Part shown: piece by piece, positions 3,357 to 55,038 of the stretch
Position numbering within the stretch: position 1 is the first letter of the stretch
How the letters are laid out: the number at the start of each line of letters is the position of its first letter
Source of the DNA: a virus
Lineage: Duplodnaviria; Caudoviricetes
Length of the DNA: 64,000 nt
Strand: one strand, 5' to 3'
Virus record (IMG/VR): IMGVR_UViG_3300037249_000989
Location: 1,016 to 65,015 of that record
Made by a program: the position numbers and the translations under genes
Notes under the pieces: generated by a model
The model's database searches: none
Told to the model about the DNA's origin: nothing
What the model saw: only the letters and a program-made list of their open reading frames with translations

Positions 3357-5090
3357 ATGGCAAATTACGATTCAAATTATGCGATTGCACAAGAGATTAG
3401 TGCAAGAATTGGTAACAGCCCAATTCCATTTGACAGCGTTTATTCAATCTGTTTGGAGATTTATAATGAGCTTGGTGGTGAACCTGCTCAATTTGATTCT
3501 GTCTATGAGATCCTTTTGGGTATTTTACCATTAGTTGAAGGTGGAATAGCAACGAAAGTTATTGACGACACGTCTATTCGCTTAGACAAGACTTGGAGCT
3601 CAAGTAAAATAAATTCAGAAATTGAAGCACATAGTGGTGCAACATACACAGCTGGTCAAAATATTTCAATAGATGCAAGTAATGCAATTTCTGCTGATGG
3701 ATATGTTTATGATTCAAGTAATTATTCATTTGCAACAATATACCGTGATAGTGAAGATCCTACTATAATAAACAGCGCATCAGGTGAAGGTGCTTTTGCT
3801 GAAGGTATGGGCACTACTGCTACAGGTATGGGTAACCACGCAGAAGGTGCTGGAACACAAGCAACAGGTTCACAATGTGCACACGCAGAAGGTTTAATGA
3901 CAGTTGCTTCTGGAAATAATTCACACGCAGAGGGCGGAAAATCAATTGCATCAGGAAAAAATTCACACGCAGAAGGTGCCTCAATAAAAAATTATAATCC
4001 TACAACTGCGGCTGGTTCTGGTTCACACGCAGAAGGTGCAAGTACATTAGCATCTGGTAAATATTCACACACAGAAGGTCAAATAACAGTTGCAAGTGGT
4101 GAAGGTGCACACGCAGAAGGTTACCGTACTGTTGCGTCGGGGCACAGTTCACACGCAGAAGGTTTTTTATATAATAGTTCATATCCAGATGATGTAACAA
4201 CCGCATCTGGAAAAGGTGCACACGCTGAAGGTGCTTCAACAAAAGCAACTGGAGATTGTGCTCACGCAGAAGGTGTAAAAACAACTGCACAAAATGAATC
4301 TGAACACGCAGAAGGTAGTTTTAATGTATCTCACAAAGCATCTGATACTTATGGTAATGCAGGCAACACTCAACACTCAGTAGGTATAAACCAAAAAAAC
4401 GCAACTGAAGTAATGCAAAATGGTGACTACTATTTATATGGTGTAGGTGGTTATCAAGGAACAAATACAAAAGTTCAAAATGCATCTATTTTAACATTAC
4501 AAGATGTAATAAACGGAAAAGCAGATGCATATGAAGTTGCAACTACAGCTGATATTGAAGCATTGTTTGCCGAACCTGTTCCACCAACTCCAGGTCCTGC
4601 TGATGATGAAATTTGGTACACAACTGAAAGTGGAAACTTATGGGAACCATATGTTGATAATGGAGATGGAGCAGAAAATACATTATTAAGAGTAAACAAT
4701 GGATCTGCTACAATTCTTTCCAATAATTATGTAAATGGACACGGTGTAATTAAATATAATAACCCAATTACAAGTCTTGATTATTAGTTTGGTACACAAT
4801 ACGACCCATCTGGCACCGGCATTAATTCAACTGATTTAACAATATTAACACTACCAAATTCAATTACATTTGTTGGTTTTATATTAGATGCAACCACACC
4901 ACAATTAGAGTCAATCTATTATAATGGCACCGTTGCAGAGTGTGAAGAAATAGATTGGGATTCATATGATGCAATCGCTGCTAATGATATTAATGAAATC
5001 ATTTGTTTAGATGGTACATATACAATTAGTGGTGGTGGCGGTTCTGGCTCAGGCTCTGGCTCTGGAGGTTCAGGCTCCGGTAATGGTTGA
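3357..5090 (+). CDS. Tail fibre/adhesin with YadA-like (Hep/Hag) head repeats, 577 aa, Gly-Ser C-terminus
   Basis: Many 14-aa S(H/A)AEG..T.ASG repeats; reads through TAG 4785-4787 to TGA 5088. Confidence 0.75.
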
Positions 5091-5118
5091 GAATAAATAA
5101 TAAAAACAAAAATTATTT

Positions 5119-6645
5119 ATGAAAAGTTGTATTTGTACGGTAATAAAAAATGAAAGTCAATACTTAGATGAGTGGATTCAATACCATTTTAATCTAGGTA
5201 TTGACGGAATCTTTTTATTTGAAGACATTGACAGTGACTCACATAAAAATATATGTGATAAATATAATAATGTGTTTTTAAATAGTATAAATAGTGTGTT
5301 AAATGAGACCCAACAAAAATAGGCAGTAATATTAAAAAAACAAACCGATATAAATGTTCAAAATTTATATTTTAAATCTGCGATGAGTTCAATACAAAAT
5401 ATGCATTTATATGATTGGTGTTTCATAATAGACATTGACGAATTTTTAGTATGTGATAATTTAAATAATGTTATTAAATTATTTTCAGATTATGATGCAT
5501 TTATGATGTCTTGGGAATCTTATGGAGCGTGTGAACACATAAACAAACCAAATATAAATGTTACTGACGCATATTTATATAAAAGTAAAGGCTTTGTGAA
5601 TAACAACCCAATTTTTCATACTAAAACTTGCTACAATTTAAACACATTTAAACCTTCTAATTATTGGACGAATCATTAGCCTTCAGAAATATGCAAATGG
5701 TGCCGGACAGATTTTTCAAATGATAGAACTAAAGAAATATTTGATAATATTTATATTAAACATTATATTACAAAATCTTGGGAAGAATATGTGGAGAAAA
5801 AATATAAAAGAGGTTTTTTTATTGGAAAATCTAGAACTAATGATTTTTTCTTCAAACTTAACCCAGAATTAAATTGTATGAAACGTGAGCTAATGGAAGT
5901 TTTAAATGATGAAATACTAGTTGTACTGCCATATAAACAAAATGGTGCTCAAGGTTCTGAGCTAGAATTGACATTATCATTGTGGAAAAAATTTTGTACA
6001 TTTAATTATCATTTTGTGGTAATTGGTGAGTTTGATAAATCATTTGAAGAAAAGTTTAATTGGGTTGAATTTATTTATCAAAAGTCTAAAGATAAAATTA
6101 AAGGTCAATACAACCCACATCTTGACATTCTTAATAAGTTTTTAACCGTAATAAATAAATACGAAAATAAATATAATGGTTTTGTTGCTATATGTGATGA
6201 TGAATATGCCATTAAACCATTTAATTTATTTGACATTATACAAACTCATTATCATTCATCTTCTTTTACTGGCGTACAAAGTGCTCCAACATCATATTGG
6301 AACCACGATAAATGGAAAACTAGATAGTTGTTTGATAAAGAAAAAATGTCTCATATAAATTATACAACGCATTTTCCATATTGGTACAATATTAAAAAAT
6401 TGAAATATATTATAGAAAAATTTAATCTTAGAAATGAGAGCTACGTGTTAGAAGATGTTTATTTTAATTATTTTAGACACGATAAACCCGTACTAGACTC
6501 TGAAATACGACTTGGAATTTGGAATAATAATATTTTTGAAAATGATTTTGAATCTGCATTAAATAATATAAATATTAAATTTATGTGTAATAGTGTTGAA
6601 GGTTGGAGTAAAGACTTAGAAAATAAATTGAAAAAATTATTATAA
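5119..6645 (+). CDS. Glycosyltransferase (GT2/GT92-like N-domain plus second DxD-type domain), 508 aa, TAG=Gln
   Basis: Four ORF fragments in one frame separated by TAGs; K-N-E-x-x-Y-L-x-E-W-I-x-Y-H and IDIDEF motifs. Confidence 0.7.
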
Positions 6646-6708
6646 ATAAAATAATATTTTTCATTTGAAAATAAAGATAAATATAAAAAATTTAACAAAC
6701 ATAACGTT

Positions 6709-7539
6709 ATGGATAAATTAATAGATTATGAAGGTTTGGGTACTTTTCAAACAAACCTATTAAACGACAACAAAATATCTCCAATTGCAACTTGGAGTTC
6801 AGAAAAAATTAGTGATGAATTAGCAAGTAAGGCTAATATTTCTGATTTAAGTTCTTATGCAACTATATCTTATGTAACAGGTGAACTTGCTACTAAAGCT
6901 AATTTAAGTGATTTAAGTTCTTATGCAACTATATCTTATGTAACAAATGGACTTGCAGGTAAACAAAATACACTAACAGCAGGTTCGAATGTAAGTATTA
7001 CAGGAAATAATATTTCTGCTATAGGATATAGATTTGATTCATCAAAAAACAGTATTGCAATAGGTACTAATACAACAGCATCTGGTTCAAATTCTCACGC
7101 TGAGGGTAAAAATACAACAGCAAGTGATGAAGAAACTCACGCTGAAGGTGTAGATTCAACTGCTTCTGGAAATTTTTCACACGCTGAAGGAGCACGGACA
7201 ACATCATCAGGTAAAGCATCACATACTGAAGGATGGATGACATCAGCACAAAATACAGGTGAACACGCAGAAGGTATGTATAATATTTCACATAGACAAA
7301 CTCTAGGTGATGGAAGTTATGGTAATACAATACATTCCATTGGTGTTGGAAGCGCTAATATTTATAGACAGAATGCAGTTGAAGTAATGCAAAACGGTGA
7401 TATGTACGTGCTTGGTGTAGGTGGTTATCAAGGAACTAATACTAAAGTTCAAGATACTACTATTAAGACATTACAAGAATACATTGCAAGTCTTGAAGCA
7501 CGTATTGCAGCATTGGAACACCCAACAACAACAGAATAA
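6709..7539 (+). CDS. Second YadA-like fibre protein (276 aa)
   Basis: HAEG repeats; shares NAVEVMQNGDMYVLGVGGYQGTNTKVQ segment with 3357 gene; 19-aa tandem repeat near N-terminus. Confidence 0.75.
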   Translation: MDKLIDYEGLGTFQTNLLNDNKISPIATWSSEKISDELASKANISDLSSYATISYVTGELATKANLSDLSSYATISYVTNGLAGKQNTLTAGSNVSITGNNISAIGYRFDSSKNSIAIGTNTTASGSNSHAEGKNTTASDEETHAEGVDSTASGNFSHAEGARTTSSGKASHTEGWMTSAQNTGEHAEGMYNISHRQTLGDGSYGNTIHSIGVGSANIYRQNAVEVMQNGDMYVLGVGGYQGTNTKVQDTTIKTLQEYIASLEARIAALEHPTTTE

Positions 7540-7563
7540 TTAAACTAATGCATAGTAATACAG

Positions 7564-7600
7564 AATAAAGGGAAGCTACTCAAAATAGTTTCCCTTTATT
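7564..7600. terminator. Hairpin terminator upstream of lysis operon
   Basis: AATAAAGGGAAGCTA-loop-TAGTTTCCCTTTATT; analogous hairpin at ~40024-40052. Confidence 0.7.
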
Positions 7601-7663
7601 ATTTTTCATTTGAACAAAAATGACTAATTGAAAACTCCACTAAAACTAATTATCAAATAACAA

Positions 7664-7909
7664 ATGAAAATGAACGCTGATACCAAAGATTGGATTAAAT
7701 TTATATCATCGATAGTGTTACTTGTTGCTGGAGTTGTCCTAATTTTTATTTCTATTTATCTTCCACCAATAGGTGAAATACACACTTCTGTGCTTACTGT
7801 TATTGGTGAAATATTTACATTTGTTGGAGCTGTCTTTGGAATCGGTGAATATGCGATGATTCAGATAGCGAAAATTAATAATAAAACAGAAGATAAAAAA
7901 GAAGATTAA
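7664..7909 (+). CDS. Holin (two TM segments, charged C-terminus)
   Basis: 81 aa, two hydrophobic helices, M-K-M dual-start-like N-terminus, upstream of endolysin. Confidence 0.65.
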   Translation: MKMNADTKDWIKFISSIVLLVAGVVLIFISIYLPPIGEIHTSVLTVIGEIFTFVGAVFGIGEYAMIQIAKINNKTEDKKED

Positions 7910-7913
7910 AACT

Positions 7914-8633
7914 ATGGCTTACCCTTGTGACTTACCTGCTAATATGGGTAATACTGACATATTACGTGCAATATATAATAAAATTGGAAATGGTGATACA
8001 AGCACCGGAAAAATTAAAGAACAATTAGATACCATCATTCAACAAATGAATGATGTCAATAATAATATTCAAATAAATACTGAAGCAATCAAAGATATTT
8101 CAATAAATGCCGATATTCATTCTAAAGATTTATAGAATATTACTAATGCAATAGATAGACAAACTGAAGCAATAAAAGATATTTCAATCAATATTGGAAT
8201 AGATACTTCTGATTTAAATGATTCTGTCAAATTGGTTGCATATAATATTGAAACTGGTTTGATTGAAACAGTGGATGCAATTAAAAATATTAAACCGTGT
8301 CCAGGACCTCATCCTCATCCGTGTCCTCCACCATATCCACCATATCCACCGAAACCAAGGCCCTGTCCTGAACCAGTTACACCTTGTGATAAAATAATTC
8401 CAAGTTATAGGGAAGGACAAAGATGTAAAGAGTGTGAAAAACAGAATCAAATAACATATAGAAGATGTTGGGAACCTAAAACATTAGAAGAACTTTATGA
8501 AGCTTACTATCACTGCTATTATCCAACATTTGATGAATTTTTCCAAGCTTTGTATGGCGCTAGAGAAGATTATTATTATTTCAGAGACTATTATTATGCA
8601 CAATATGATGAAAATTATGATTATTATGCATAA
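7914..8633 (+). CDS. Hypothetical protein: coiled-coil N-terminus with Pro/Cys/Tyr-rich tail (239 aa, TAG=Gln)
   Basis: TAG 8133-8135 aligns with CAG in copy 2. Confidence 0.7.
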
Positions 8634-9328: not shown

Positions 9329-9840
9329 AAACATTAAATTGGATCATAGGAATATTGCTTCTGGTGTCTCTAATTTTCAATGGATTATAGTTTTATTATC
9401 TAAAGCATTTGAGTGTGCCAGAATGTGTCTATGTGTCAGATACGGTCACTATTAAGAAAGATAGTATCATAACAAAAACAAAGTGGAAAACCCATTTTGA
9501 TACAATAAAGAAAATCCATTATAAAGATACAATTTTACACGACACTATATATATGCCTATTGAGCATAAAGTGTCAGAATTTGAGCTAAAGAAAGATAGT
9601 TTTGAATTAAAACAGAAAATACATCACAGTGGGTGGCATACTAATATTGATAGTGTAGAGTGTAGTTATTCTCTTAATTATGAGATAATGAAACCAAAAC
9701 CTAAAAAGTTTGGTTGGTGCATAACATTTGGACCTAGTATAAATTATGGAATAACACTAGATGTACAGAACAAAACTTGGACTAATGGACCTTCAGCCGG
9801 CTTTTCTATTGTGATAGGTCCAAGTTATATTATTAAATAA
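9325..9840 (+). CDS. Spanin-like membrane-anchored protein (171 aa, TAG=Gln)
   Basis: N-terminal TM helix followed by TAG; follows endolysin. Confidence 0.5.
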
Positions 9841-10615: not shown

Positions 10616-11485
10616 ATGAAGAAAAACTATGGGCTCCCATATATGGGGTCAAAAAACAAATTAGCAGAAGAAATAGTAAACTTTCTCCCATAGAAAAAAG
10701 TTTTAGTTGACCTATTTGGCGGAGGTGGTGCAATTAGTGTCTGTGCAAGCCAAAGTGGAAAATATGAAAAAATCATTTATAATGAGTTGAATAGTTTAAT
10801 TAGCGAAACCTTCAGAAAAGCATTAAATGGTGATTATGAAAATGAACGAAGATGGGTCAGCCACGAGGAGTTTGATTAGTTAAAAGATAAAGATGGCTAC
10901 GTTGCGATTTGTTTTTCATTTTCAAATAATTGTAATAATTATATGTACGGACCTAAAATTGAACCATATAAACGTGCATATCATTATGCGATTGTATTTA
11001 ATGATTTTGGACCGTTTAATGAATTATTTGATGATGAAACTACTGAGAAAATCAAAAAGAGTGTAGAAGGCATTACAGATTTGAAAGAACGTAGAATTAA
11101 ATTTTCACACGCATTAGGTGATTATATTCTATCATTAGAAAGATGTGAGCATCTAGAAAGAAAAGAAAAATTTGATTTAAAAAATGATGTCATAGAAGTT
11201 TTCAATAAAGATTATGCAGATGTTGAACTTCCATCGCCAGAAGATTGTGTAATATATTGTGATATTCCATATGACAAAACAGCTTCATATACGACTGGAA
11301 GTTTTGATTATGAGCGATTTTATAAATGGTGTCAAGAAAAAACATCTGAAGGTTATCAAATCTATGTTTCATCATATGAACTTCCAGAAGATTTATTTGT
11401 TCCCGTTTGGGAAAAAGGAAGACATAGTAAAGCACTTAGTGGAAGTAAACACGTAGTTGAAAAAATTTATACTATCAGAAAATGA
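10616..11485 (+). CDS. D12-class (Dam-like) N6-adenine DNA methyltransferase (289 aa, TAG=Gln)
   Basis: PYMGSKNKLA, DLFGGGG and YCDIPY motifs across two TAGs. Confidence 0.8.
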
Positions 11486-13062
11486 AGAATAATGTATCAA
11501 AAAAATAGCGCAATCTTGGACAGTTTTATACACCGACTTTGTTTGTTGACTATGCACATAAAATGATTGAGGAACAATTGGGAGAAGATTGGCGCGATAC
11601 GTACACTGTATGGGATAATTGTTGTGGAACAAAGAATTTGACACGTGATTATCGATTCAAAGAGTTGTATTGTTCAACATTAGAAGAGGCTGAGTTGGAG
11701 ATTGGAAAGAAATATAATCCTGAAGCTATAAGTTTCCAATATGATTTTTTAAATGATGATTTAGAGAAATTGCCGAAGGGATTGTTGGAAGCATTTGAGC
11801 AGAATAAACCTCTAGTTTTTCTATTAAATCCGCCGTATAGTTATAATGGGGGTCAATGCGGATCAGCTAAAGGCGCTTCTAATACAAAAGTTAAAGAATT
11901 AATGGTTAAAAACAATATTGATGGAAAGGGTGAATTATATATTCAATTTTTATATAAAATTTCTCTAATTAAACAAAAATTTAATTTAACAAATTGTTAT
12001 ATAGCATTATTTTGTAAACAATTTATTTGTCGTTCATCATTTAAAAATTTTAGAAAGGACTTTTTAAATCAATTTTGTTTTATTGATGGCATTATGTTTT
12101 GTGCAGGAGAATTTGATAATGTATCAAATAGTTATGGTCTAACATTTAATATATGGAAATCTGAAAAAGATATTAATAATAATCATTTTGCACATAAAGT
12201 TGTAGAAAATATTAATGGTGAAATAAAAATATTGGAAGAAAATAAATTATTATATAATACTGATAATAATAAATCATTTATTGATATACTATCAAATAAT
12301 GCAAAACGTATAAATGAATTTCCAAATTTTAGATATAAATTATTAGCATCTGATGATAATATAAAAGTTCCAAATAATTATATTGGCTGTGTATATAATG
12401 CTGTAAACAGAACAATGTTAGCAACAATGCCATATGCCGGAAATAATGGAGCAAAATTTATGGTTACAACTGATAATTATAAAGATATTATTTCTTATTA
12501 TGCATTAACATATCTTACACATAATTCTTGGAAAGATGGGCAAAATGAATTTTTAATACCAAATAAAAATCATTTATATTATGATAATTTCATTAATGAT
12601 GCATTAATGTTTTGTATATTTAATGGTGATTATGATTGGTCGCTTCGTCAAATACAATATCATAATAAACTATGGGATATTAAAAATGAATTTTTCTGGA
12701 TGTCAAAATCTGAAATTGAATCACTTGCAAATGAATATAATAATGACGATTGCTATAATGATGCACACACATCTCCAGAAAGATTTGTTTATAAAAAACT
12801 TCAGGAAATTGAATTAACTCCAGAAGCACAAGCAGTTCTTGATAAAGCCTGTGATATTGTTAGAAAAACTTTCAAATATCGGGAATTATTTAATGATATA
12901 ATGCCGGAAGCACAAATTAATAATTGGGACTGTGGATTCTATCAAATCAAATTATTATGTAAGGAATTTGCACCAGATTTGCTTAAGGAATTTAAAGATG
13001 TTTATAAACAACTTGCAGATACAATGAGGCCAATGGTGTACGAGCTTGGGTTCTTGAAATAA
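11482..13062 (+). CDS. N6-adenine DNA methyltransferase with C-terminal specificity region (526 aa, TAG at codon 9)
   Basis: GQFYTP, WDNCCGT and LLNPPY motifs. Confidence 0.8.
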
Positions 13063-17625: not shown

Positions 17626-18922
17626 AATTTTAAAATTTTTAAATTAAACATTTCAATTAACTTTACGGAAATGGTATAACGGAATCAGAAAAAAGTTTGG
17701 TTTGGACCCTAAAAAAGTTATAAATTCATAACAGGAGGAAATAAAAACTTAAAGATAGTATATAAAATTCATTCTAAGATACCAGATTTGACACCAGACA
17801 CACCGAAATAACCCAGTAATATAAATTATTAGGCTAGCAGAAAAGAAGTCCCCAGAATCAAATTATAATCTGGGAACGAAAAGCAGTAAGAAACGAATCA
17901 GGTTTGCCTTATATTAACAGATTAACGAAAAACGTATATATAAGAACCAGAATTTGCCTGATATAAACTAATAAAAAAGAAATAAATTCAGATACACTCA
18001 GATATAAAGAAAGATAGATATATAACAGATACACCCAATATATAAAGTAAGTAAAGAGATAGAGTAATAAAAAACACACAGGACGCATTAAATCAGGTAA
18101 TATATATAAATCTATAATACAGATAGTTTGAAGTCACCAGAATGTGAATATGGACTATCAGGAATATTTTTAAATATTTAATATACTCACGGAAATCGGA
18201 TATCCGGCTAATGTGCTGATACTAGTTAAGGATAGGGAATAGTAATAGAAATAAAGCATTCTAATAGGTTTAGACTTGTTCAGAAGAATCAGGAAATCGC
18301 AGGAACGCGGGATATCTGGCCCTCTGGGCCTTAGTTTTTACATATAATTTTAATTTGGAAAAAACTGAAATAAATAATATGAACCATTTTATTTGGTTCA
18401 AAAATAAATTTTTTCATTGATAATTTTTAATTAATTTTTTAAGGGAGTTAAACCTGCGACAGGCTAAGCTCCCATTTTTTTGGGCACAATTCAGATTTTA
18501 TCAATTATAATATAATTGATAATTATATACTATATTGACCTAAAACAGGCGATTACCTGACCACCGAGCTACGCTCATTAGCAGATTTATCGCAATAATT
18601 CCAATAATTCCATTTAATCAGATTACTCAGCCACGACCGATTATCTCATTTTGCTAGTGGATCAGGTAATCAGATGTTCAGATGAATCGGGTTTCCGGTT
18701 TTTCTGCTAATCTGCTGGTCTGTCTCCTTATATATACGCGCGTATTGGGAACCTAAAATTAGGGCAAACTCGTATATAATTATCAATAGTATTAGACCAA
18801 AGCTAACACCCTGAAAATCACTGGAATAAAAGTGCATTTTTTCGTCATTTTTTTGTCTAAAAATTTTCATATGTCAAAAATTTTTATTAAATTTGCAATG
18901 TATTTTAAAAACAGTAAAACAT
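17626..18922. other. Conserved palindrome-rich non-coding region (candidate att/junction, origin or packaging region)
   Basis: No conserved ORF; strongly similar to 48753-50164; 25-bp and 12-bp palindromes, 15-bp inverted repeats, CAGAT motifs. Confidence 0.55.
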
Positions 18923-20095
18923 ATGAAAAAGTTAGACCAAAAGCACCAACAAAATGTGATTTACATTATTATGCACGCAAAGGAAATCTTCACTAAGCTA
19001 AGATGGCCAAACGGTGTAAGATGCCCTTATTGTGGTGAAGTTCATTGTTGGACCTATAAGAATGGTATGCACAAGTGCTCTAAATGTGGAAAGCGTTTTA
19101 GTGACACCAGTAACACTGTTTTTCACGGAACAAAGATTCCTATTGCTTCGTGGATTGTGGCTCTCTATTTGATTACAATGAGCAAAGGATGCAGTTCTGA
19201 AGAGCTTTCAGCTTATACAGGTATAACGCAGAAGTCTGCTTGGTTCTTATTACATAAAGTAAGGGAAGCATTCAGACCAGATGGAACTGTATTAGATGGT
19301 GATGTAGCTGTAGATGAAGTTTATTTAGGTGGCAAATGGTCTAGTATAATATTGCCTAAGAAGATAGATATTCTTAAGCGTTATGGTTTATGGTATGAAG
19401 GTGACAAAGAGAGAACCTGGCACAAAAAGAATATACGTAGAGCAATATCTGAATATAAGCAACCTGTCTATGGAATGAATGATGGCAAGAATATTGTACT
19501 GATGGCAGTTCCTAATAGGTTTGATTCTAAGGACCTGTTAGATATTACATTAAAGCATACAGGTAATATTCAGCACTTAGTTAGTGACCAATCTATATTA
19601 TATAAGGAGATTGCAGAAACAGGTATTGATGTGATCCAAATGAACCATAGTAAACGAGAGTTCCATAATGGTGAATATTCGAGTAACAGAATTGAAGGAA
19701 CCTTTAGCCATTTGAAACGCAGATATAGATGTCATTATGTGAGACCTGAAAAAAAATATATCCAGCTCTATCTGAATGAATTTTGTTTCAGATGGAACCA
19801 TAGAGACAATACTAGTATAGAGAGATTAGCTGATAGTATTGGTTTATGTGTCACCAGAGGACGTGTAACTAATAAGGATATATATAACTATAATTGGTTA
19901 AGTTCGTATCACCAGAGGAAACCTAAACGTAGAGAGACTTTAGAAGAATGGTTTGAAATAGGATGGCCACCTTATGCAGAATCAATGGAAGTTCAAGGTG
20001 TTGTATATACTAAAGAACGGTTTAATGAACTAAAAGCACAATGGGAAGCTAAAAGAGATATATGGCATATAGATGAAAGCGAACTAGTTTTTTAG
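18923..20095 (+). CDS. IS1595-family (ISXO2-like) DDE transposase
   Basis: Zn-ribbon CPYC/CSKC, VAVDEVYLGG, VSDQ, NRIEG, YLNEFCFRWN; no internal TAG; -7 box TAAATTTG upstream. Confidence 0.9.
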   Translation: MKKLDQKHQQNVIYIIMHAKEIFTKLRWPNGVRCPYCGEVHCWTYKNGMHKCSKCGKRFSDTSNTVFHGTKIPIASWIVALYLITMSKGCSSEELSAYTGITQKSAWFLLHKVREAFRPDGTVLDGDVAVDEVYLGGKWSSIILPKKIDILKRYGLWYEGDKERTWHKKNIRRAISEYKQPVYGMNDGKNIVLMAVPNRFDSKDLLDITLKHTGNIQHLVSDQSILYKEIAETGIDVIQMNHSKREFHNGEYSSNRIEGTFSHLKRRYRCHYVRPEKKYIQLYLNEFCFRWNHRDNTSIERLADSIGLCVTRGRVTNKDIYNYNWLSSYHQRKPKRRETLEEWFEIGWPPYAESMEVQGVVYTKERFNELKAQWEAKRDIWHIDESELVF

Positions 20096-20349
20096 TTTAA
20101 ACTAAGTAGGTAGTTCCATTGTTAAACATTAAATAGAAACAATAAATAATTCAGTATTAAATAATGTGCCATAAAATGGTACATTCTGTATATCTGTTTT
20201 AATTATTATATATATTATATATACTATATAAACTAGTTTAGCACCCAAATTTTTAAACCTACGTTAGACCCTTTAGCAAATTGAATTTTGACCAAAATTT
20301 TCTTAAATAAATAATATATAGAAACAATAAAAATTAAAACTCACACATT

Positions 20350-20502
20350 ATGATTACATTATTATCTATAGCATCTGTTTTAGCAACAGTATTAAACGTT
20401 ACTATTATTTTTGGAGCAGGTTATGTAACTGCATACTACATCCAATATTTAAAAAACAAAAATTCAAACATCACATTAAATGAAAAATCCAAAGAAGCTT
20501 GA
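20350..20502 (+). CDS. Small membrane protein (50 aa)
   Basis: Hydrophobic N-terminus; conserved in copy 2. Confidence 0.55.
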   Translation: MITLLSIASVLATVLNVTIIFGAGYVTAYYIQYLKNKNSNITLNEKSKEA

Positions 20503-21001
20503 TTTGAATACAGAATCACATTTCAGTTAGAGAGTTCCTAAAAAACAAAGAGAATATTTGAAAAAGCTCTGGACACCACCAGAGAATAATGATGCAGACA
20601 CAATTCTGAATTGGCTCTATAACAGAGGGCTGGTTCAGAATTATGTTCGTAAATTAGAGTATGAAACCATTGATGAAGATACCATATAGGATGAGATTCA
20701 AGAAGTTTGGCTTTACCTAATAGAAAAGAAAGACAAGCTCAAAGAATTATATGATACACAAGGCATAACAGGTTTGACTGCCTATGTTTCCGGCATAATT
20801 GCAAGACAGGTTCACTCTAATAGTTCCCAGATTTATAATAAATACAAAAAGGGATTCAAGATATTTAAACATATATCAGACAAAACTTGGGAAGTCTTTG
20901 ATAATACTGGTGAAATGATTTCCACTAATTATGATTATTTGACTGAGGAGACACTTGAAGATACTATTATAAAAAACATATATAATAATAAAGATGAGTA
21001 A
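20480..21001 (+). CDS. Putative ECF sigma region-2-like protein (173 aa, TAG=Gln)
   Basis: IQDEIQEVWLYLIEK..GLTAYVSGIIARQ resembles sigma-70 r2. Confidence 0.55.
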
Positions 21002-21320
21002 AAAAGGAAGACCTAAAATAGACAGACCTATTGAAGAACTGAATTATACTACGTTTTAGCAAGATATAACGATGTTCAGAAACTATTTGATTGACGTGGT
21101 TGAAGATGAAGAAACAGAAGACCCCAATATCCCAATTATCAGGAAATTCCTATCAATGGAGATCTGGGCCTAGAATCTGTTTATCATATATCTGCTAAAC
21201 AAAGAAAAACATAATACTGCGAACAAATTCACATTCAAAGCCCTTGCCGATTTATTGTAGGTTGACAGAGCTGAGTTAATGCGAAAAATAAAAGATATAA
21301 AAAACGAACTGAAGATATGA
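20994..21320 (+). CDS. Putative sigma region-4-like HTH protein (108 aa, 3 TAG=Gln)
   Basis: FLSMEIWAQNLFIIYL..FTFKALADLLQVDRAELMRKIKDIKNEL resembles sigma-70 r4. Confidence 0.55.
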
Positions 21321-21640
21321 TATTAAATTTGATTTGTATATGGATTATATGTGTCGTGGTGATAGATATTTCTGGTTTTATAGATTCTATTAAATACGGA
21401 ATTTCCTATCTCCTGACAAAAGGGAAAATCCCATCATCAGATTATAGGATTAAACCGATTGACTGTAGTTTCTGTATGAACTTCTGGATTGGTTTAATTT
21501 ATATTATTTGTATTGGGTAGTTCTCATTACCGGCAGTTGCATTTATTCTAATACTCTCTGTCTTTACCCCTATTTTGAAAGATATTATTATTCTTTTGAA
21601 AGATATATGTATAAAAATTATTGACAAATTCTATGACTAA
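21317..21640 (+). CDS. Membrane protein with CxxC (107 aa, TAG=Gln)
   Basis: Several TM segments, DCSFCMNFW. Confidence 0.65.
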
Positions 21641-21959
21641 AGAACAACACGATAAACTTATTAAATATGAGCAGATTTTTAGAACTGCGATTGACTCAAA
21701 TTATTATAGATCTATGGACAGCCGATTTGCGAGCGATTTTATTTCAATGTGCCGTGAATTGAATGTTTATATTAAACCAAGTTGTCCATAGTGTGTGCTC
21801 AAGGCATTACAGACAATGGGCAAACTTTATTTTGATTACAAAGAACCTGAAAAAGAAAAACCAATTCAGGACACTTCAAAACCAATAGATAATAAAACTA
21901 TTACTAAAACAAATAAAGTGTCCCAGAAGTCACAGAAACAATCAAAGAAAAAGAAATGA
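21633..21959 (+). CDS. Hypothetical protein with CPQC motif (108 aa, TAG=Gln)
   Basis: Conserved at 52900-53226. Confidence 0.65.
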
Positions 21960-21968
21960 TGATTAGTT

Positions 21969-22493
21969 ATGGCTAGTAAAAAAGATAATTATATAAATAG
22001 AGACTTTTCTCACGACAGAGACAGGTTTGATTCCAATATTACATTATAGGCAAGAGCAATGATTATCGCAGATGAGATTGCCAAAGGAACATTATATCGT
22101 CAGATTGTGAAGAAATATATGGATGAATGGGGTGTTTCATATAATTATATGCACTCTATTATTACTGAATCTATTAATATGTTCAATAATGAAGCCATAT
22201 ATAAAAAGCTGAAAGATATAAATTTGGACAGATTGACCGATATATATGCAGAAGCACGTTAGCAAGGTGACTTAGATGTGGCAATTAAAGCAGTCGATAA
22301 GCTGAATAAAACTGCCGGAATATACGATACAGAGAAAACTTAGGTTCAGGTTCAGACCGATGATAGTAATATAGTCATTACCTTTGGTGGTGAAAGTATT
22401 GAAACCGTAGAAGCTAAGTTTAATTAGAAGCCTGAAGATGCACCATTTAATGAGGTAGACAGTTTAATTAGTGATGCTTTAGATAAAAAGTAA
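21969..22493 (+). CDS. Terminase small subunit, putative (174 aa, TAG=Gln)
   Basis: Helical protein directly upstream of terL; CAG aligns with TAG in copy 2. Confidence 0.6.
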
Positions 22494-22504
22494 AAATTTG
22501 AATA

Positions 22505-23728
22505 ATGAACATACAATTACCGAAAATGTTTGGTTGGCAATAGAAGGTTTTCTTAGGGTTGAAGAACCATTGGAAAGATTCTATTCACGTAGTCAAGTCA
22601 AGACGTCAGTGTGGCAAGTCAATTTTAGCAGAATTGATTGGAATGTTTTATTGCATACAATAGAAGAACTTTAGATGCTATATTATTGAGCCAACATTCA
22701 ACCAAGCAGATAAAGTTATGAATGAAGTTTGGAAGATGTGTAAAGGCCAACCATTTTATTATAAAAAGAACGATATAAAAAGATAGTTACTATTCAAGAA
22801 CGGTGCTGAAATACGATTGTTCTCGGCTGAGCAAGGTGTAGATGCATTACAAGGTTATACGTGTGAGTTGCTGATAATAGACGAAGCTGCATATTTAAGT
22901 GAAGATATTATTGATGCAATATTTCCATATGTGAATACTACTAAAGGACCTATTGTAATGTTCTCTACCCCACGTACAAAGTCCGGATAGTTCTATAATT
23001 ATTATTCGATGGGATTAAGTGGAGATGAAAATATTTATAGTTACGACTGGGCACGTGAAGACGTTTCTGAATTACTTAGTCCAGCTAAACTTGAATTGTA
23101 CCGAAAAACTGTTGACCCATTAAAATTCAAAAACTATTATTTAGGAGAATTCTTAAATAACGAATCTGATTTCTTTGGTGATTTCTCACAATGTGTCAAA
23201 GACAAGCCAAGTATTTTTTGTATGGAACCAGTAGTATTTGGTATAGACTGGGCTGGTTCAACTGGTGGTGACTACACTGCTATTTCTATTATTGGACTTA
23301 GTGGACAACTTTATGATATTAAATATTTCAATGACAAGGATCCAAAACAAACTATTGCTGAAATATTAAGATTGGTTGCATAGTATAAACCTAAAAAAGT
23401 GACGGTTGAAACAAATTCAATTGGTAATATATACTTTGGTTTGCTTAGAGACGAATTGAAAATGCGAAATGTTCCGTTAATTGGGTTTTACACAGATAAT
23501 ACAAGTAAAGATAAGATTATTTCTAAGTTACAGGTTGCTTTTCAGAATAATAAAATTATGATTTATACTGACTACGAACTAATGGATGAACTTCAATATT
23601 ATGAGTTAACTTATAGTAAAACTGGGAAACGTGTATTTAATGCTAAGACTGGACACCACGACGATGTTCTGATGTCGTTAGCAATTGCATATAATTCGTT
23701 AACTTCTGGAAACTATGATGTTTGCTAA
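22505..23728 (+). CDS. terL: Terminase large subunit (407 aa, 5 TAG=Gln)
   Basis: Walker A KSRRQCGKS, Walker B LLIIDEAA, GIDWAG nuclease motif, HDD. Confidence 0.9.
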
Positions 23729-23773
23729 ATAAATATAAAAACAAAAAATTATTTTTCATTTGAACAAAAGATT

Positions 23774-24513
23774 ATGACTTGGAACGATATTACATATAGA
23801 CAATTACTTGATATTAGAGAGGCTGCTAATATTGAAGATGAAAATGAACGTGTGTATGCAATTATGGAAGCTGTTTTTGGTGAAGATGTTTTAAATTTGC
23901 CATTAAAAGACTTCAATGAAAAATGCAAAGAATTGTAGTTTTTACAAAAACCAATTCCAAATGATTTGCACGTTAAAAACATTAAAGTAAACGGAAGAGA
24001 ATATTATTTTGATGGGTTGCTTGGAAAAATCACTACAGCCCAATATATTGACTTCCAAAACTACCAAAAAAATGAAGATGAACAAAAAACATTTTCAGTT
24101 TTCATTATACCTAAAGGCCATAAATATAATGATGGTTATGATATGGACCAAGTGTTTAATGATATATTAGATGTGCCAGTACCTATTTTATTCAGCGCAA
24201 GTTTTTTTTTCATTCGGTAGTTCGAACTATTCATTAGAATTTTCCGACGTTATTCAATCAAATAGATGAAGAAGACCGGACTACCGAAGGAAGTGATGGA
24301 GAATCTGGAGAAAGTAGTGAACTTGTCAACAACGATGATGATAACCCCTTTGGAATCTTTCCGTTCGTAATGACTTTTATAGAAGTCACAAACCACACTT
24401 TAGAAGAAGCGATGAACTATGATGTAGCAACATTATTTTATGTAGTGAGTTATCAAGTGATGGTTAACAAAAAGAAGGAAGAAATGATAAAGAAAATGTA
24501 GAAACGAAGCTAA
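23774..24513 (+). CDS. Tail assembly chaperone pair with -1 frameshift (short form ends 24370, frameshifted form ends 24513)
   Basis: Slippery T-TTT-TTT-TTC at ~24201-24211; -1 frame shows synonymous changes versus copy 2. Confidence 0.7.
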
Positions 24514-24974
24514 TGGAACAAACTACTGAAATAAGAAATATATGTGAGCAAATTGCTTAGGTTTACCGAGATAAAATGAGTAATGCCGGGTATGATCCAA
24601 ATGGTGAACTAATGAAGTTTACTTGGGTGACAGAATTAAACGGTAATTTATTTGAATTGTACTTCAATCTTCCGGACTATTGGTAGTATGCAGAAAATGG
24701 TAGAAGACCAGGAAAGTTCCCTCCACCTGATGCAATACTAAAATGGATTCAATTTAAACGATTAGTACCAAGACCCGGAAGAGACGGAAAAGTTCCAAGT
24801 ACAAACCAATTGGTTTATTTAATATCAAGAAAGATTGCATTACACGGAACTGAAGGTAAACATTTGCTTCAACAAACTATAGACGAAACATATGATAATT
24901 TAGTTGACAGATTGGTTGAAGCTATTACAAACCAAATTGAAAATGAATTAGAAAAAGATATAGAAGAAATATGA
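24513..24974 (+). CDS. Neck/tail-completion protein (153 aa, TAG=Gln)
   Basis: ENGRRPGKFPP..ILKWI motif typical of phage morphogenesis proteins. Confidence 0.6.
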
Positions 24975-26164
24975 AATACTTAAACGAACGAATCACTCAA
25001 CAAATAGACTTAGGTAGCCTTCAAGAAAAAGGTGTGTATAAATATGAAGTTCAAGTTTCAGATAAATTTGAACAGAGTGGATGGTGGACAATATTTGTTG
25101 GTAACTATTATAATAACAGAGAGCGTTATCACACATTTGATATTACCGATTTATGTCGAAGCAGAAAAAGAAATATACATACTTCTTTTGGAAAAACATT
25201 TGATACTGATGATTTTACTATTGAACAATATAGAATAATCGTTACAAAAAGTGATGATACGACTGTTACAGGTTCAGCAATAACTGTAGCGCATATTTAT
25301 CCATATCCAAATGTACAAAAATCTACACTTTCAATGCGGCCTTCAAATGTATTTTTTGAAATTATAGATGGTTCAAAAAAAGATGTTAGTTTATTGCTAC
25401 AGGGTAACAACAGATTTAGAACAGGAACTAATAATATATACCTTTGTCCAAAATATCCAATGGTTAATAATGAACTAGACTTAGATGAAAATTATACAAT
25501 GACATTTGGTGCTGCTATTGAAATTGGTAGTGCAATAGGTGATGTTACTTTTTTTACAGTTGAAGCAGGTGCAGATTATACAGATACTGATGAATGGTAT
25601 GGTTCTTACAGTCTAGAGAATTTAGGTCGTGAAGGTTATTCTCATACATTTTTTAGAAGTTATGGTTATTTCTTAAACACAGATAGTAAAGGCGGTGTAC
25701 CAATGAATCTTGATTATTGGGTTTATATGACGTGGAAAAATGTTAATAATGTTAGCCAATATCGTAGAATAGCCATTATTGAAGCTTGCAAAAGCAGATA
25801 CTATTTATTATGGCAAGATAGATTTGGAAGTTATCAAAGCCAACCATTTAACGGTAAAATGGAGTATTCCGAAGATATTACAAATAGTGAATATGTAAGT
25901 TATACTGGAAACCGATACAAATATAATGTACAAGTGCAGCCAAAATGGAAACTCAATTCTGGTTGGTTAACAGAAGATTTATTCCCATTTTATGAAAGTA
26001 TTTATGTTAGTCCTATATTGAAACTATATGATACTGAAACACAAACAGAATATGATGTTATTCTTAACGATAAATATACTGAAAAGAAATATGTCAATGA
26101 GAAAAAGTTATTGAGCATAGAATTAAACTTAGAAGCAACTGAAAAACAAAATATTATTTACTAA
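24971..26164 (+). CDS. Tail protein (397 aa)
   Basis: C-terminal YYLLWQDRFG...WKLNSGWL region shared with 56230-57819. Confidence 0.6.
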   Translation: MKYLNERITQQIDLGSLQEKGVYKYEVQVSDKFEQSGWWTIFVGNYYNNRERYHTFDITDLCRSRKRNIHTSFGKTFDTDDFTIEQYRIIVTKSDDTTVTGSAITVAHIYPYPNVQKSTLSMRPSNVFFEIIDGSKKDVSLLLQGNNRFRTGTNNIYLCPKYPMVNNELDLDENYTMTFGAAIEIGSAIGDVTFFTVEAGADYTDTDEWYGSYSLENLGREGYSHTFFRSYGYFLNTDSKGGVPMNLDYWVYMTWKNVNNVSQYRRIAIIEACKSRYYLLWQDRFGSYQSQPFNGKMEYSEDITNSEYVSYTGNRYKYNVQVQPKWKLNSGWLTEDLFPFYESIYVSPILKLYDTETQTEYDVILNDKYTEKKYVNEKKLLSIELNLEATEKQNIIY

Positions 26165-32001: not shown

Positions 32002-32579
32002 AATATTATTACATAGACATAAATGATAATGAACTTGGTTTACAAGCTATTTCTTTAGTTGATAAACCTGCAATAGAGCAAGACTTTTTGTTATTTAGTG
32101 ATGAACATATTTGTTTCGCTAAAGATGATGAAAAACAAATCATTTCCGGGCCTGCACTAATAGCAGAAATGCCTATTTATAGACGTAATGCTAAAGGTGA
32201 AGAATTTTATGTTATCTTCAATAAAGAAACTATTGCAAAGTTGGTTGAAAGATACAGCAAAAATGGTTTATTTAATATTGTAAACCTTCAGCACGACCAC
32301 AGTTTGTTTACCGAAAATGCAATCTTAGTTGAATCTTACTTTATCGACAAAGAACGTGGAATTGCACCTAAAGAATATGGAAGTTTGACAGATGGATCTT
32401 GGGTAGTTTCATTTAAAATCGAAGATAAAGAATTATGGGAACAAATTAAAAATGGAAATGATTTGAATGGTTTTTCTGTTGAGGTTGCCGGACACTTGGT
32501 TGAAAAATTTGAATCAGAAAAAACCGATACCCCGGAAGATGAAATAAATAAATTGATAGATGAAATATTGGAAAAATGA
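31998..32579 (+). CDS. Prohead protease, XkdF-like
   Basis: AISLVDKPAIE...GSWVVSFKI..LW..IK.G.LNGFSVE. Confidence 0.75.
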   Translation: MKYYYIDINDNELGLQAISLVDKPAIEQDFLLFSDEHICFAKDDEKQIISGPALIAEMPIYRRNAKGEEFYVIFNKETIAKLVERYSKNGLFNIVNLQHDHSLFTENAILVESYFIDKERGIAPKEYGSLTDGSWVVSFKIEDKELWEQIKNGNDLNGFSVEVAGHLVEKFESEKTDTPEDEINKLIDEILEK

Positions 32580-32621
32580 TAATCCATATATTTTTCATTT
32601 GAACAAAAATTAAAATCATAT

Positions 32622-33140
32622 ATGATGAATAGCAAACTTTTAAAACTCGCTCGTATGGTTATGAACTTAGCTGAAGTTGAAACTGACAAAGCTAAGCTTA
32701 TCATTGAAGGCGAAGCAGAAGTTGGTAAAGAGGTTTTTGTTGAAGACGAAAATGGTGAACTCGTTGCTCCAGAAGATGGTGAATACATTGCTTCTGAAAA
32801 CATTTTAGTAATTGCTGATGGCAAAATTGCTGAAGTACGTGAAAAAGAAGCAGAGGAAGCTCCAGCAGAGGAACAACCTGAAGAACCAGTTGAAGAAGAA
32901 CAAGAGGAACAAGAACCCGAACAACCAACCGAAGAAGCTCCAGCTGAAGATGAAAAAGATGCTGAAATTGCTAAGCTTCAAGCACAAATTGAAGAACTTA
33001 ACAATATTATAGCTGAAAAAGACGAAGAAATCGGCAGACTTAAAGCTGAATTAGAAAAATCTGATGCAGAACCTGCTGAGGAACAATTAAAATCACAAAA
33101 AACTGAAACAAAGTCTTGGGTTTATAAGCCAAGATTCTAA
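32622..33140 (+). CDS. Capsid scaffolding protein
   Basis: Acidic, coiled-coil protein between protease and capsid. Confidence 0.65.
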   Translation: MMNSKLLKLARMVMNLAEVETDKAKLIIEGEAEVGKEVFVEDENGELVAPEDGEYIASENILVIADGKIAEVREKEAEEAPAEEQPEEPVEEEQEEQEPEQPTEEAPAEDEKDAEIAKLQAQIEELNNIIAEKDEEIGRLKAELEKSDAEPAEEQLKSQKTETKSWVYKPRF

Positions 33141-33170: not shown

Positions 33171-34052
33171 ATGGCATTTGTAGTAAATACCCTTCCTGAG
33201 TATGTAGATCAAAACAAGGGAGAATTAATCTCAAAAGTAATGCTTGGCTTTGAAACTAAGAAATATATCAACGATATGCCGGGCGTAAAATACAAAAAAG
33301 CATTGAACATTCTTGCTACTGACCCAGTGCTTCAAGCACGTACTTGTGGTTGGGATGCATCCGGAAACGTATCTTTCACACAACGTGAAATGGAAGTTGC
33401 AGCTTACAAAGTAAATATGGAAATGTGTGAAGAAGAATTAAGAGAAACTTGGTTAGCTGACCAAATCCGTGTTAAAGCTGGTGCTGAAGTTCTTCCTTTC
33501 GAGGAAAAAATCACTAATCACATCGTTGAGAAAGTTCAAAACGAAATTGAAAAACTCGTTTGGAACGGTTCAACCGGAGACGGTGACTTATTTGATGGAT
33601 TCTTAACAATCTTAGATGCAGAAGCTTCTGTAATTGACGTATCTGCTGGTGCTTCAGATTATGAAACTGCATTAAATGTTTACAAAGCAATTCCTGCTGA
33701 AATTTTAAACTATGCAGAAATGTTCTGTGGTAATGATGTATTCCGTTCAATCGTTCTTGAAATCACAGCTAAGAATCTTTATCATTATGACCCACGTGTT
33801 GATGATGCAAAAACTATCATACTTCCTGGAACCAATACTAAGTTACACGCTGTTAGTGGTCTTGATAATACAAAACGTATTGTTGGTGCTGACCCTGCAA
33901 ACTTATTCTATGGTTATGATGGTGCTGATGACGCTGAATCATTCGATTTATGGTATTCAAAAGACAACCAAGAATTCCGCTTAGCTATTAAGTTTAATGC
34001 TGGTACTTAGGTTGCATTCCCTGACCAAATCGTTGTTTCTGAAGCTGAGTGA
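33171..34052 (+). CDS. Major capsid protein (293 aa, single TAG near the C-terminus)
   Basis: TAG 34008-34010 aligns with CAA in the first copy. Confidence 0.8.
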
Positions 34053-42622: not shown

Positions 42623-42937
42623 ATGGAAACCAAACTTTATTACACTAAAGATGAGGTACTTAATAAAACTCACTTTAAATTTGTCGATAACGGAAAAGAC
42701 ATTTATTTGTACTAGAATGATGGAAACTTTGAAATATATAAATCATTGTTTCTATTAAAACCAAATGCAACTGAGCTTATAGAAGTATATGTAGAATTGA
42801 AAGTTTACATGGTAGTGGTTGAGCATTTGAATAATAAATCAAGCAGATGGATGAATGAATTTAATGCATATGTTTTTTATAGTGTAAAAGATTATTTTGA
42901 AAAACTAGAAGAAGCTAATAAAAACAGATTGTTCTGA
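42623..42937 (+). CDS. Hypothetical protein (copy 2, TAG=Gln)
   Basis: Orthologue of 10298-10612. Confidence 0.7.
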
Positions 42938-42938
42938 T

Positions 42939-43307
42939 ATGAAGCAATATGAACTAATTGGAATGAATGTAGCAAGTAATAAGAACTCAAAACGAATAGT
43001 CAGAGGAAGACTGATTAACAGTAAACTTGCAATGGATTATTATAATTTCGTTATTCCGAAACTTGAAGAAATAAAGCCGGAACTAATGGAAGATTTGGCT
43101 AATAAAGAAATGCCTTACCGTTTTCACTTTTATTATATAAGGAAAGACAAAAGGCATTTTGATTATTGTAATGTGGTTTAGATCCTTGCAGATGCTTTTT
43201 AGAAAATCGGAATATTAGAAGATGATGATATGAATCATTTTGTTCCAGTCTTTGATGGATATGAAGTTAATGGAGATAATCCAGGTGTTAAGTTTTGGGT
43301 TAATTAA
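42939..43307 (+). CDS. RusA-like Holliday junction resolvase (122 aa, TAG=Gln)
   Basis: FDYCNVVQILADAFQKIGILEDDD matches the RusA D.DN...DAL...DD pattern. Confidence 0.7.
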
Positions 43308-48752: not shown

Positions 48753-50164
48753 AATTTTAAAAATTTTAAAAATTTAACATCATTTAATTTCGAGAATGTT
48801 ATTACGGAATCAGAAAAAAGTTTGGTTTAGGCCCTAAAAAAGTTGTATAATCTTAAAAATAGTATATTTCTTCTTAATAATCGTATATAAAAATTCATTC
48901 TAAGGTACCAGATTTGACACCAGACACACCGAAATAACCCAGTAATATAAATTATTAGGCTAACAGAAAAGAAGTCCCCAGAATCAAATTATAATCTGGG
49001 AACTAAAAGCAGTAAGAAACGAATGGGATGTGCCTTATATTAACAGATTAACGAAAAACGTATATATAAGAACCAGAATTTGCCTGATATAAACTAATAA
49101 AAAAGAAATAAACTCAGATATAGATATATAAGATACAGAGATAATACACCTATAATATAAATAAAGCAAGCAAGTAAATTTTATATAATAAGATAAATCA
49201 CTCCAGGACACATTAAATCAGATAAGATATATAAATCTATTATACAGATAGTTTCGAATCACTAGAATGTGAATAAGGACTATCAGGAATATTTTTAAAT
49301 AATTTATATACTCACGGAAATCGGATATCCGGCTAATGTGCTGATACTAGTCAAGTCTAAGGAATAATAATAGAAATAAAGCATTCTAATAGGTTTAAGT
49401 TTGTTCAGGTTCTTCAGGAAATCGCAGGAACGCGGGATATCTGGGCCCTCTGGGCCTTGCTAAGTGCACATAATTTTGTTTGAAAAAAAAATCGCAAATT
49501 TTGAAACTTTTTCAGATTCCAGAATAACATATAAGTCTCATAGTTATTAAGGGAGCTAAATCCGAGATGGACTAAGCTCCCATTTTTATTTAGGTTTGCC
49601 GATTTTATCAATTATAATATAATTGATAATTATATACTATATTGACCTAAAACAGGCGATTACCTGATTACCGAGCTACGCTCATTAGCAGATTTATCGC
49701 AATAATTCCATTTACTCACCAAAAGCCAATAATCAGATTTGGTTAAAGAATCAGATTACTCAGATTGGATCAGATTGGATCAGATAATCAGATGAATCGG
49801 GTTTCCGGTTTTTCTGCTAATCTGCTGGTCTGTCCTATTATATACGCGCGTATTGACATAATGACAAATGTCAATTTTAGGACAAACTTGTATATAATTA
49901 TCAATAGTATTAGAACCCATTCTGGTGCATCCAATTCAATTTTAGGTTAAAATGTCAAAATGATACAAAAACAATCATTTTTGTAACACACTTTTGAAAA
50001 GCCCTATAGGTTTTTCGAATGGTCAGTTACATTTTGTAAACTATTTTGAATAAAAAGTATCATAATGACAAAATGACTGCTAATGTGCATTTTATTGTCA
50101 AAAAATTTTCATATGTCGAAAATTTTTATTAAATTTGCAATGTATTTTAAAAGCAATATAACAT

Positions 50165-51355: not shown

Positions 51356-51746
51356 TTTAACTAAGTAGGTAGTTCCATTTTAAACATTAAATAGAAAAAA
51401 TAAATAATTCAGTATTAAATAATGTGCCATAAAATGGTACATTCTGTATATCTGTTTTAATTATTATATATATTAAATAAACTATATAAACTAGTTAACT
51501 AGTTTAGCAACCAAAATTTTAGACCTGTTTTAGACACTTTAGAAAATTGAATTTTGACCAAAAATTTCTTAAATAAATAATATATAGAAGCAATAAAAAT
51601 TAAACCTCACACAACTATGATTACATTATTATCTATAGCATCTGTTTTAGCAACATTATTAAACGTTACCGTTATTTTTGGAGCAGGTTATGTAACTGCA
51701 TATTACATCCAATATTTAAAAAATAAAAAATCAAACATTACATTAA

Positions 51747-52268
51747 ATGAAAAACCCAAAGAAGCTTGATTTGAATACAGAATCACATTTTAGCTAGAGA
51801 GTTCCTAAAAAACAAAGAGAATATTTAAAGAAGCTCTGGACACCACCAGAGAATAATGATGCAGACACAATTCTGAATTGGCTCTATAACAGAGGGCTGG
51901 TTCAGAATTATGTTCGTAAATTAGAGTATGAAACCATTGATGAAGATACTATATAGGACGAGATTCAAGAAGTTTGGCTTTACCTAATAGAAAAGAAAGA
52001 CAAACTCAAAGATTTATATGATACACAAGGAATCACAGGTTTGACTGCCTATGTTTCCGGTATTATTGCAAGACAGGTTCATTCTAATAGTTCCCAGATT
52101 TATAATAAATATAAAAAGGGATTCAAAATCTTCAAACATATATCAAACAAAACTTGGGAAGTCTTTGATAATACTGGTGAAATGATTCCCACTAATTATG
52201 ATTATTTGACTGAGGAGACACTTGAAGATATAGTGATTAAAAATATATATAATAATAAAGATGAGTAA
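51747..52268 (+). CDS. Sigma region-2-like protein (copy 2, TAG=Gln)
   Basis: Orthologue of 20480-21001. Confidence 0.55.
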
Positions 52269-53226: not shown

Positions 53227-53235
53227 TGATTAGTT

Positions 53236-53760: not shown

Positions 53761-53771
53761 AAATTTGAATA

Positions 53772-54992: not shown

Positions 54993-55038
54993 AATAAATA
55001 TAAAAACAAAAAATTATTTTTCATTTGAACAAAAGATT

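Follow-up and report, generated by a model that had tools for sequence, protein, structure and literature searches.

The window analysed in this study, 64,000 nt in length, comprises bases 1016-65015 of a 65,015-bp IMG/VR virus record, and the runs containing the locus are mostly bovine-gut metagenomes. When TAG is read as a sense codon, many short ORFs merge into long ones, with 57 in-frame TAGs in 8,141 codons of 32 genes across the window. Under this code, each of two units encodes a portal protein, capsid-like and tail proteins, an endolysin, TerL, a tape-measure-like protein and a head protease. Although colinear, the two units share only 65-94% identity, and their cargo differs at one site, where unit 1 (10616-13062) carries a D12-class adenine methyltransferase and a 526-aa unknown protein and unit 2 (42897-43307) a RusA-like resolvase. 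Neither Pfam nor PHROGs recognised a replication gene in the unit or window, and despite the use of TAG as a sense codon, scans of the window for tRNAs (ARAGORN) and Rfam families returned nothing. Each unit contains one gene for an IS1595-family transposase (tnp), and the ends of the corresponding IS lie together upstream of it (Table 1).

Table 1 Features of the transposase locus in the two units of the window
Feature	Position in the window	Strand	Basis
IS1595-family transposase gene, unit 1; 390 aa, stop TAG	18923-20095	+	Translation, Pfam, D/D/E residues, AlphaFold model
IS1595-family transposase gene, unit 2; 396 aa, stop TAG	50165-51355	+	Translation, Pfam
Putative Bacteroidota-type -7 promoter box of tnp	18888-18895 (unit 2: 50130-50137)	+	Read from the sequence
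IRL, unit 1; family-type 13-nt tip at 18518-18530, pointing left	18508-18543	.	Inverted repeat
IRR, unit 1; 13-nt tip at 18772-18784, pointing right to tnp	18759-18794	.	Inner signature
Core of the mini-element, unit 1; tnp-less, 215 nt, hairpin module at 18679-18706	18544-18758	+	13-allele alignment
IRL, unit 2; tip at 49625	49612-49652	.	
IRR, unit 2; tip ends at 49902, core hairpin module at 49789-49816	49875-49915	.	
227-bp stretch equal to record end plus start; probable assembler join of two strains	32532-32758	.	

The transposase gene and its displaced ends

The products of both copies matched the Pfam families DDE_Tnp_IS1595 (E values of 4e-19 for copy 1 and 1e-18 for copy 2) and Zn_ribbon_IS1595 (6e-9 and 9e-9), and the matches exceeded the curated cut-offs for both copies as well as for the homologue in the related phage L090. 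D135, D226, E262 and K269, which lies seven residues past E262, were invariant in an alignment of 74 clade members; the D/D/E residues were also invariant in outgroups, and the Zn-ribbon cysteines in a 32-sequence alignment. Together with the uninterrupted ORFs, these data confirm the intact DDE transposase with a Zn ribbon that a preliminary description had noticed in both units. The best PDB matches of the AlphaFold model (pLDDT 83.5) were DDE transposases and retroviral integrases, and the fold search of this model retrieved a generic DDE fold (ISCth4, retroviral integrases and Mos1), which does not settle the mechanism. A sequence search found no solved structure of any IS1595-family member, and the transposase matches in GenBank phages were only 25-30% identical.

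Both copies lack an internal TAG, as had been observed, and end with a TAG stop codon. The absence of TAG from one 396-codon gene (P about 0.06-0.14) is unremarkable alone; when TAG was treated as a stop, all 18 copies examined were still full-length ORFs. The host-type -7 box of the preliminary description is present in both units, 28 nt 5' of the ATG, and is found in most alleles, where it probably acts as the tnp promoter; a sigma-70 promoter scan, whose model is poorly suited to Bacteroidota, gave no enrichment. The two copies share 92% protein identity with a dN/dS of 0.19, and the 92.9% identical block in which they lie (18846-24976 versus 50088-56235) covers the downstream neighbours as well, in agreement with the earlier remark that the gene has diverged like its neighbours, although recombination breakpoints also fall inside tnp. 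Across 19000-19650 the identity forms a mosaic, with ~98% identity to the related phage G001 in the 5' part of copy 1 and 97-99% identity to copy 2 in its middle part. This pattern is a sign of recent recombination between strains that circulate together.

An inverted repeat of 36-41 nt was found 5' of tnp in both units and in G001. In unit 1, its arms are 36 nt long and 83% complementary, and IRR is 139 nt from the ATG of tnp. The 13-nt centre of the arms is the terminal sequence of canonical IS copies encoding the same protein clade, and the inner signatures identify the left arm as IRL-type and the right arm as IRR-type of these canonical copies. The polarity of the tips was set by the target duplications of the canonical copies, and accordingly the phage tips face outward from the 215-nt core. 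Mini-elements run from tip to tip at 18518-18784 and 49625-49902, and 11 further alleles contain one. This segment is a tnp-less mini-element with the transposase gene just beyond its right end. The earlier statement that terminal inverted repeats are lacking therefore holds for the sequence bracketing tnp, but both IS ends are present 130-400 nt upstream.

The order of the module is the same in every window-type phage, namely IRL, a core of 145-321 nt, IRR, a further 114-750 nt and tnp, and at least 10 alleles, only 59-70% identical, share this rearrangement. No residual ends scoring above shuffles were found 3' of tnp or in the interval from IRR to the ATG, and a by-eye resemblance to decayed ends in these two regions was rejected on the same ground. 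When checked for a target duplication, the flanks of the window's mini-element turned out to be merely similar AT-rich near-palindromes. The ~10-14 nt outside each arm are alike in the rearranged and canonical layouts, which suggests that both may trace to one ancient insertion site.

In the 13-allele alignment, 96% of the cells of the core hairpin are paired and compensatory changes occur in three of the four inner pairs. The alternation between U-A and U-G in the hairpin would favour an RNA of the tnp (+) strand. The whole mini-element folds with z = -5.6, and the hairpin is flanked by repeated short motifs, the core repeats being iteron-like. An exact scan of IMG/VR for the hairpin module matched only the known relative.

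Upstream of the mini-element lies ~0.8 kb of ORF-poor DNA (17680-18500 and 48790-49600) with many short repeated motifs. It contains two terminator-like hairpins (18318-18330 and about 18443-18478) and patches that are highly variable among strains, and several short metagenome contigs end just upstream of IRL.

Canonical relatives, selection and cassette exchange

Members of the same protein clade retain the ordinary layout in bacterial DNA. In L171, a 160-kb bacterial contig, tnp is located between an SSB gene and a phosphatase-family gene and is bracketed by the 13-nt motif, with an abutting 9-bp direct repeat (9830-9838 and 11272-11280). A second non-phage context (L187-L192) shows an 8-bp repeat in L187 (1264-1271 and 2660-2667), and the phage L193 contains an 8-bp palindromic duplication (1164-1171 and 2475-2482). 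Bracketing ends around tnp were present in L171, L187, L193, L195 and L207, and the canonical IS is 1.3-1.4 kb in size. In the distant phages L193, L195 and L207/L218, whose TerL is ~42% identical, a canonical IRL-tnp-IRR element lies upstream of the same operon of a small gene and TerL, and the copy in L218 is 82% identical to the bacterial IS. In the tree, the window-type copies form one clade, and the canonical phage and bacterial copies fall in its sister clade or at its base. Mobility within the protein clade is thus recorded for the canonical copies in the bacterial contig, the second non-phage context and the phages, and not for the window layout. The preliminary description had held that free IS copies with the same ends in the host would speak against its reading, and in substance such copies exist in bacterial DNA. 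An empty site for the bacterial IS was sought via the neighbouring gene, and every contig with that exact protein carries the IS.

When 76 TerL relatives at greater distance were examined, an IS1595-type gene of some kind lay upstream in five, and one of these genes is 82% identical to the bacterial IS. Other IS1595-type transposases, only 34-40% identical, were seen within 10 kb upstream of TerL in L214, L217, L224 and L228 (TerL 33-41% identical). The wider phage group apparently acquired members of the IS1595 family more than once.

The window-type gene is maintained. Each of the 18 copies examined is intact and of full length. Comparisons in which synonymous sites are unsaturated gave dN/dS values of 0.08-0.19; between alleles, these sites are saturated. 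The two arms of the mini-element match each other better within the same genome (19.1/26) than between different genomes (16.6/26; permutation p < 1e-4), and their preservation equals that of the arms in canonical copies. The intactness of at least 10 divergent alleles, the low dN/dS and the co-evolution of the arms therefore argue that the module is maintained, with the gene under purifying selection and its two ends evolving together. All fetched contexts of the window-type clade were phage-like, and among the listed clusters the contigs do not exceed 31 kb. A long retention of a functional-looking transposase by the phage lineage is thereby supported. The same data weigh against the view that the locus is a selfish or neutral IS remnant that inserted at a permissive intergenic position, became scrambled and is now being lost by drift, serving neither the phage nor the element. 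A drifting remnant would account for the mobile canonical relatives in bacteria and phages and for the other IS1595-type genes upstream of TerL, but not for invariant catalytic residues in 74 proteins, a low dN/dS despite synonymous saturation between alleles, co-evolving ends kept as well as in active canonical copies, or a layout common to such divergent alleles.

Maintenance does not make tnp a core gene, as had been proposed. Phages with TerL 93-96% identical carry Tnp alleles only 59-67% identical, whereas phages with a TerL identity of 42% have a Tnp identity of 63%. Correspondingly, the co-phylogeny of Tnp and TerL put forward as a check fails, with a Spearman coefficient of 0.31 between the two identities (p = 0.06). 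Moreover, the close relative L088 (TerL 91-93% identical) contains neither the mini-element nor tnp, although both its flanks are 92-94% identical to those of the tnp-bearing L090. At the tnp site, L088 has an unrelated cassette (4661-7924) of three TAG-free ORFs (305, 302 and 157 aa) and one reverse ORF, and the TAG-free ORFs match phrog_11371 (unknown) and a methyltransferase-like PHROG. The left breakpoint is within ~25 nt of IRL and the right one 392 nt past the tnp stop. The difference reflects replacement of a cassette and not transposition; a close relative lacking the gene, which the preliminary description had named as contrary evidence, thus exists, but by replacement and with no clean empty site. 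Elsewhere in L088, at 1682-2698, lie genes resembling NUMOD3 and HNH endonucleases.

Taken with the breakpoints inside tnp, these comparisons show the module to be an accessory cassette, located at a hot spot, that the phages can exchange or do without. Because L088 is without the whole module, it is unlikely to be essential for replication, for packaging or for the late switch, and such roles were rejected. The dispensability in L088 and the position at an accessory-gene hot spot are also what a functionless remnant would lead one to expect; set beside the signs of selection, they leave that explanation improbable.

Proposed activity of the module and the question of integration

We consider that the locus is best explained as a rearranged IS1595-family IS in TAG-recoded bovine-gut phages of ~31-34 kb, whose transposase gene is immobile yet maintained as part of an accessory module, and we assign this reading a probability of roughly two in three. 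The ancestral form would have been an ordinary IS of 1.3-1.4 kb with the order IRL-tnp-IRR and an 8-bp target duplication, a layout that persists in more distant phages and in non-phage contigs, at least one of them clearly chromosomal. In the lineage of the window, both ends would have come together upstream, where they now bound a core of 145-321 nt with a conserved hairpin, and tnp would have been left just beyond the right end, under a host-type promoter of its own and incapable of moving with its ends. The enzyme, made under the standard code, is predicted to bind both adjacent ends and to cleave at their tips. The mini-element would then be transposed, or copied out as a circle, and inserted into AT-rich 8-bp targets. 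This is most likely the usual activity of the family, since a member of the IS1595/IS1016 family produces 8-bp AT-rich duplications and a circular intermediate (PMC12561309). Against this reading stands the observation that no excised, empty or solo mini-element was present in ~4 Mb of fetched loci, in which the mini-element occurs as one copy per phage and always beside tnp. That an immobile gene is under purifying selection implies a benefit of some kind, which our analysis cannot name.

The preliminary description took the transposase for the phage integrase/excisionase and suggested that it builds the tandem array. The supposed array, however, looks like the product of a figure-8 assembly: bases 1-127 of the record recur exactly at record bases 33647-33773, and bases 64905-65015 at 33547-33657, with an end/start overlap of 11 nt. 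Both record ends fall inside a single 227-bp stretch, longer than any other exact inter-unit repeat (156 bp for the next longest). This is what an assembler walking through two circular genomes with one long identical segment in common would leave. G001 (33,452 bp) has a 150-bp terminal overlap, giving a 33.3-kb monomeric circle that is colinear with each unit, and all contigs with head-protease homologues in 120 clusters were at most 36.3 kb in length. The 65-kb record most likely represents two co-occurring strains merged by the assembler, so that the two units are probably separate molecules. The choice rests on parsimony, as a true heterodimer circle would give an identical assembly graph. 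More generally, the record cautions that viral records of double length composed of diverged units can be assembly joins.

A possible route to integration is that replicative transposition of the mini-element fuses the phage circle with the chromosome, yielding a cointegrate that is flanked by two mini-elements and later resolved by recombination. Several features are compatible with it. As had been reported, no tyrosine or serine integrase was found elsewhere by Pfam or PHROGs among ~50 ORFs with TAG read as Q; the enzyme gene adjoins its DNA sites, as in int-attP modules, has no internal TAG and is preceded by a host-type promoter; the phages can do without the module and closely related ones exchange it, which is also true of integration modules; and there is a precedent in phages that co-opted IS30 (PMC12823448). 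The geometry of the sites, however, restricts this route, as the sites are not oriented for the whole phage genome to be the inserted segment. With tips facing outward from a short core, a cut-and-paste or circle route would move only the mini-element, and the phage as a giant transposon or as an IS-circle junction was ruled out by tip polarity. Whole-phage integration would be possible only via a replicative cointegrate, which we consider improbable, and the IS1595 family is not known to have a replicative mechanism.

Integrated forms were also sought directly. No host DNA is present in the window, the phage relatives assemble solely as 30-36-kb units, and no integrated prophage with junctions at the recognition sites was found in the window, in the contigs with Tnp or protease homologues or in genome scans, all of these searches being of limited sensitivity. 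The pattern scan of species genomes returned nothing above 36% identity, and its peptide patterns can miss relatives that are 60-70% identical. Among ~1,200 distinct Bacteroidota genomes, 401 of them from the family nearest the IS-bearing bacterium (the sampled member being 85% identical in PRPP synthetase), no clade member was detected and only distant IS1595 genes were present. The sole TerL relative found in that family, G1079:C32 (L306+L307), is a distant relative of the phage and an all-phage 26-kb contig in a Bacteroidota genome bin. Its structural module is syntenic at 30-46% identity with a GC content of 46%; it lacks tnp but does encode a D12 methyltransferase and recognisable proteins of primase/helicase type. 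A cointegrate flanked by repeats of 270-350 bp would be collapsed in short-read assemblies and would surface as a circle and a separate solo element; that no integrated forms turned up therefore counts only weakly against a cointegrate. With neither a host junction nor a chromosome-embedded form and with tips that face away, the claim of an integrase/excisionase is unsupported, and we regard this explanation, too, as having a low probability.

Domestication for some other phage function needing cleavage at both ends, such as programmed excision of the core, which would act as a DNA switch ahead of the late operon and tnp, or a site-specific break from which recombination-dependent replication is initiated, could draw on the location of the module between the leftward early genes and the late operon, on the lack of a recognised replication gene in the unit, on the iteron-like repeats and covarying hairpin of the core and on a likeness to domesticated transposases discussed below, but is improbable given that L088 is without the whole module between flanks 92-94% identical to those of a tnp-bearing phage, that no excised variant was seen and that bacterial repair of a double-strand break at the site is not assured.

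The broader proposition that the phage lineage domesticated an IS1595 transposase together with both ends as a dispensable, allele-specific DNA-rearrangement module, for instance for lysogeny via a cointegrate, is in our judgement rather unlikely. If true, it would be a second and mechanistically different case beside the IS30-based IScream phages.

Comparison with known systems

Phage genomes seldom contain IS elements, and those that they do contain usually do not persist. It is unusual to find an immobilised and selected transposase kept next to intact ends of its own throughout a clade of phages, and one IS lineage appears to have been retained at one site through deep divergence, with its own gene immobile and its enzyme and ends under selection. 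The locus shares with the IS1595 family (an ISfinder family; PF12762/PF12760; IS1016-type members such as ISApl4, PMC12561309) the Zn ribbon and DDE(K) transposase, short terminal inverted repeats with a family-typical tip and 8-bp AT-rich target duplications, the last being seen here in the canonical clade relatives. In contrast to the family layout, in which the ends bracket tnp, the window and at least 10 related alleles have both ends upstream. The window protein also differs from generic members in a C-terminal extension of ~70-90 aa beyond the aligned part, and the window-type clade was seen only on phage-sized contigs and at one fixed site. Judged by its protein, the gene belongs to the IS1595 family, yet the element lacks the layout that defines the family.

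The IScream phages are integrase-less and encode a distinct subclade of IS30 transposases with a proposed origin from bacterial IS elements (PMC12823448). Their prophages contain IS30 copies at both ends, of which one is complete and the other frequently truncated, with documented host junctions and circular forms (PMC12823448). In the phages described here, the IS family is different, each unit has one tnp with no second or truncated copy, no prophage form is seen, and the ends bound a 270-bp mini-element, whereas IS30 bounds the IScream prophage. Mu-like phages likewise encode a DDE enzyme and have no tyrosine or serine integrase. However, the ends of Mu are the termini of its genome, whereas here the ends are ~250 nt apart, G001 closes into a circle and the enzyme belongs to another family. 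Mu virions carry a linear genome with variable host flanks.

MITEs with a trans-acting transposase resemble the module in that a tnp-less element with intact ends lies beside an immobile, selected tnp. MITEs are dispersed in multiple copies, whereas here there is one per genome, with no sign of proliferation in the fetched loci. Domesticated transposases with retained substrates include RAG1 with the RSS, ciliate PiggyMac and yeast Kat1. The likeness to these systems consists in an immobile, selected gene next to intact ends; no rearrangement product was seen here. If the module works for the phage, the co-option of transposases by phages would extend to a new IS family and a new geometry, and one gene with one 270-bp substrate would make a simple study system. 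If it is only a stranded IS, the shared IS copies would still link uncultured TAG-recoded phages to a Bacteroidota host lineage.
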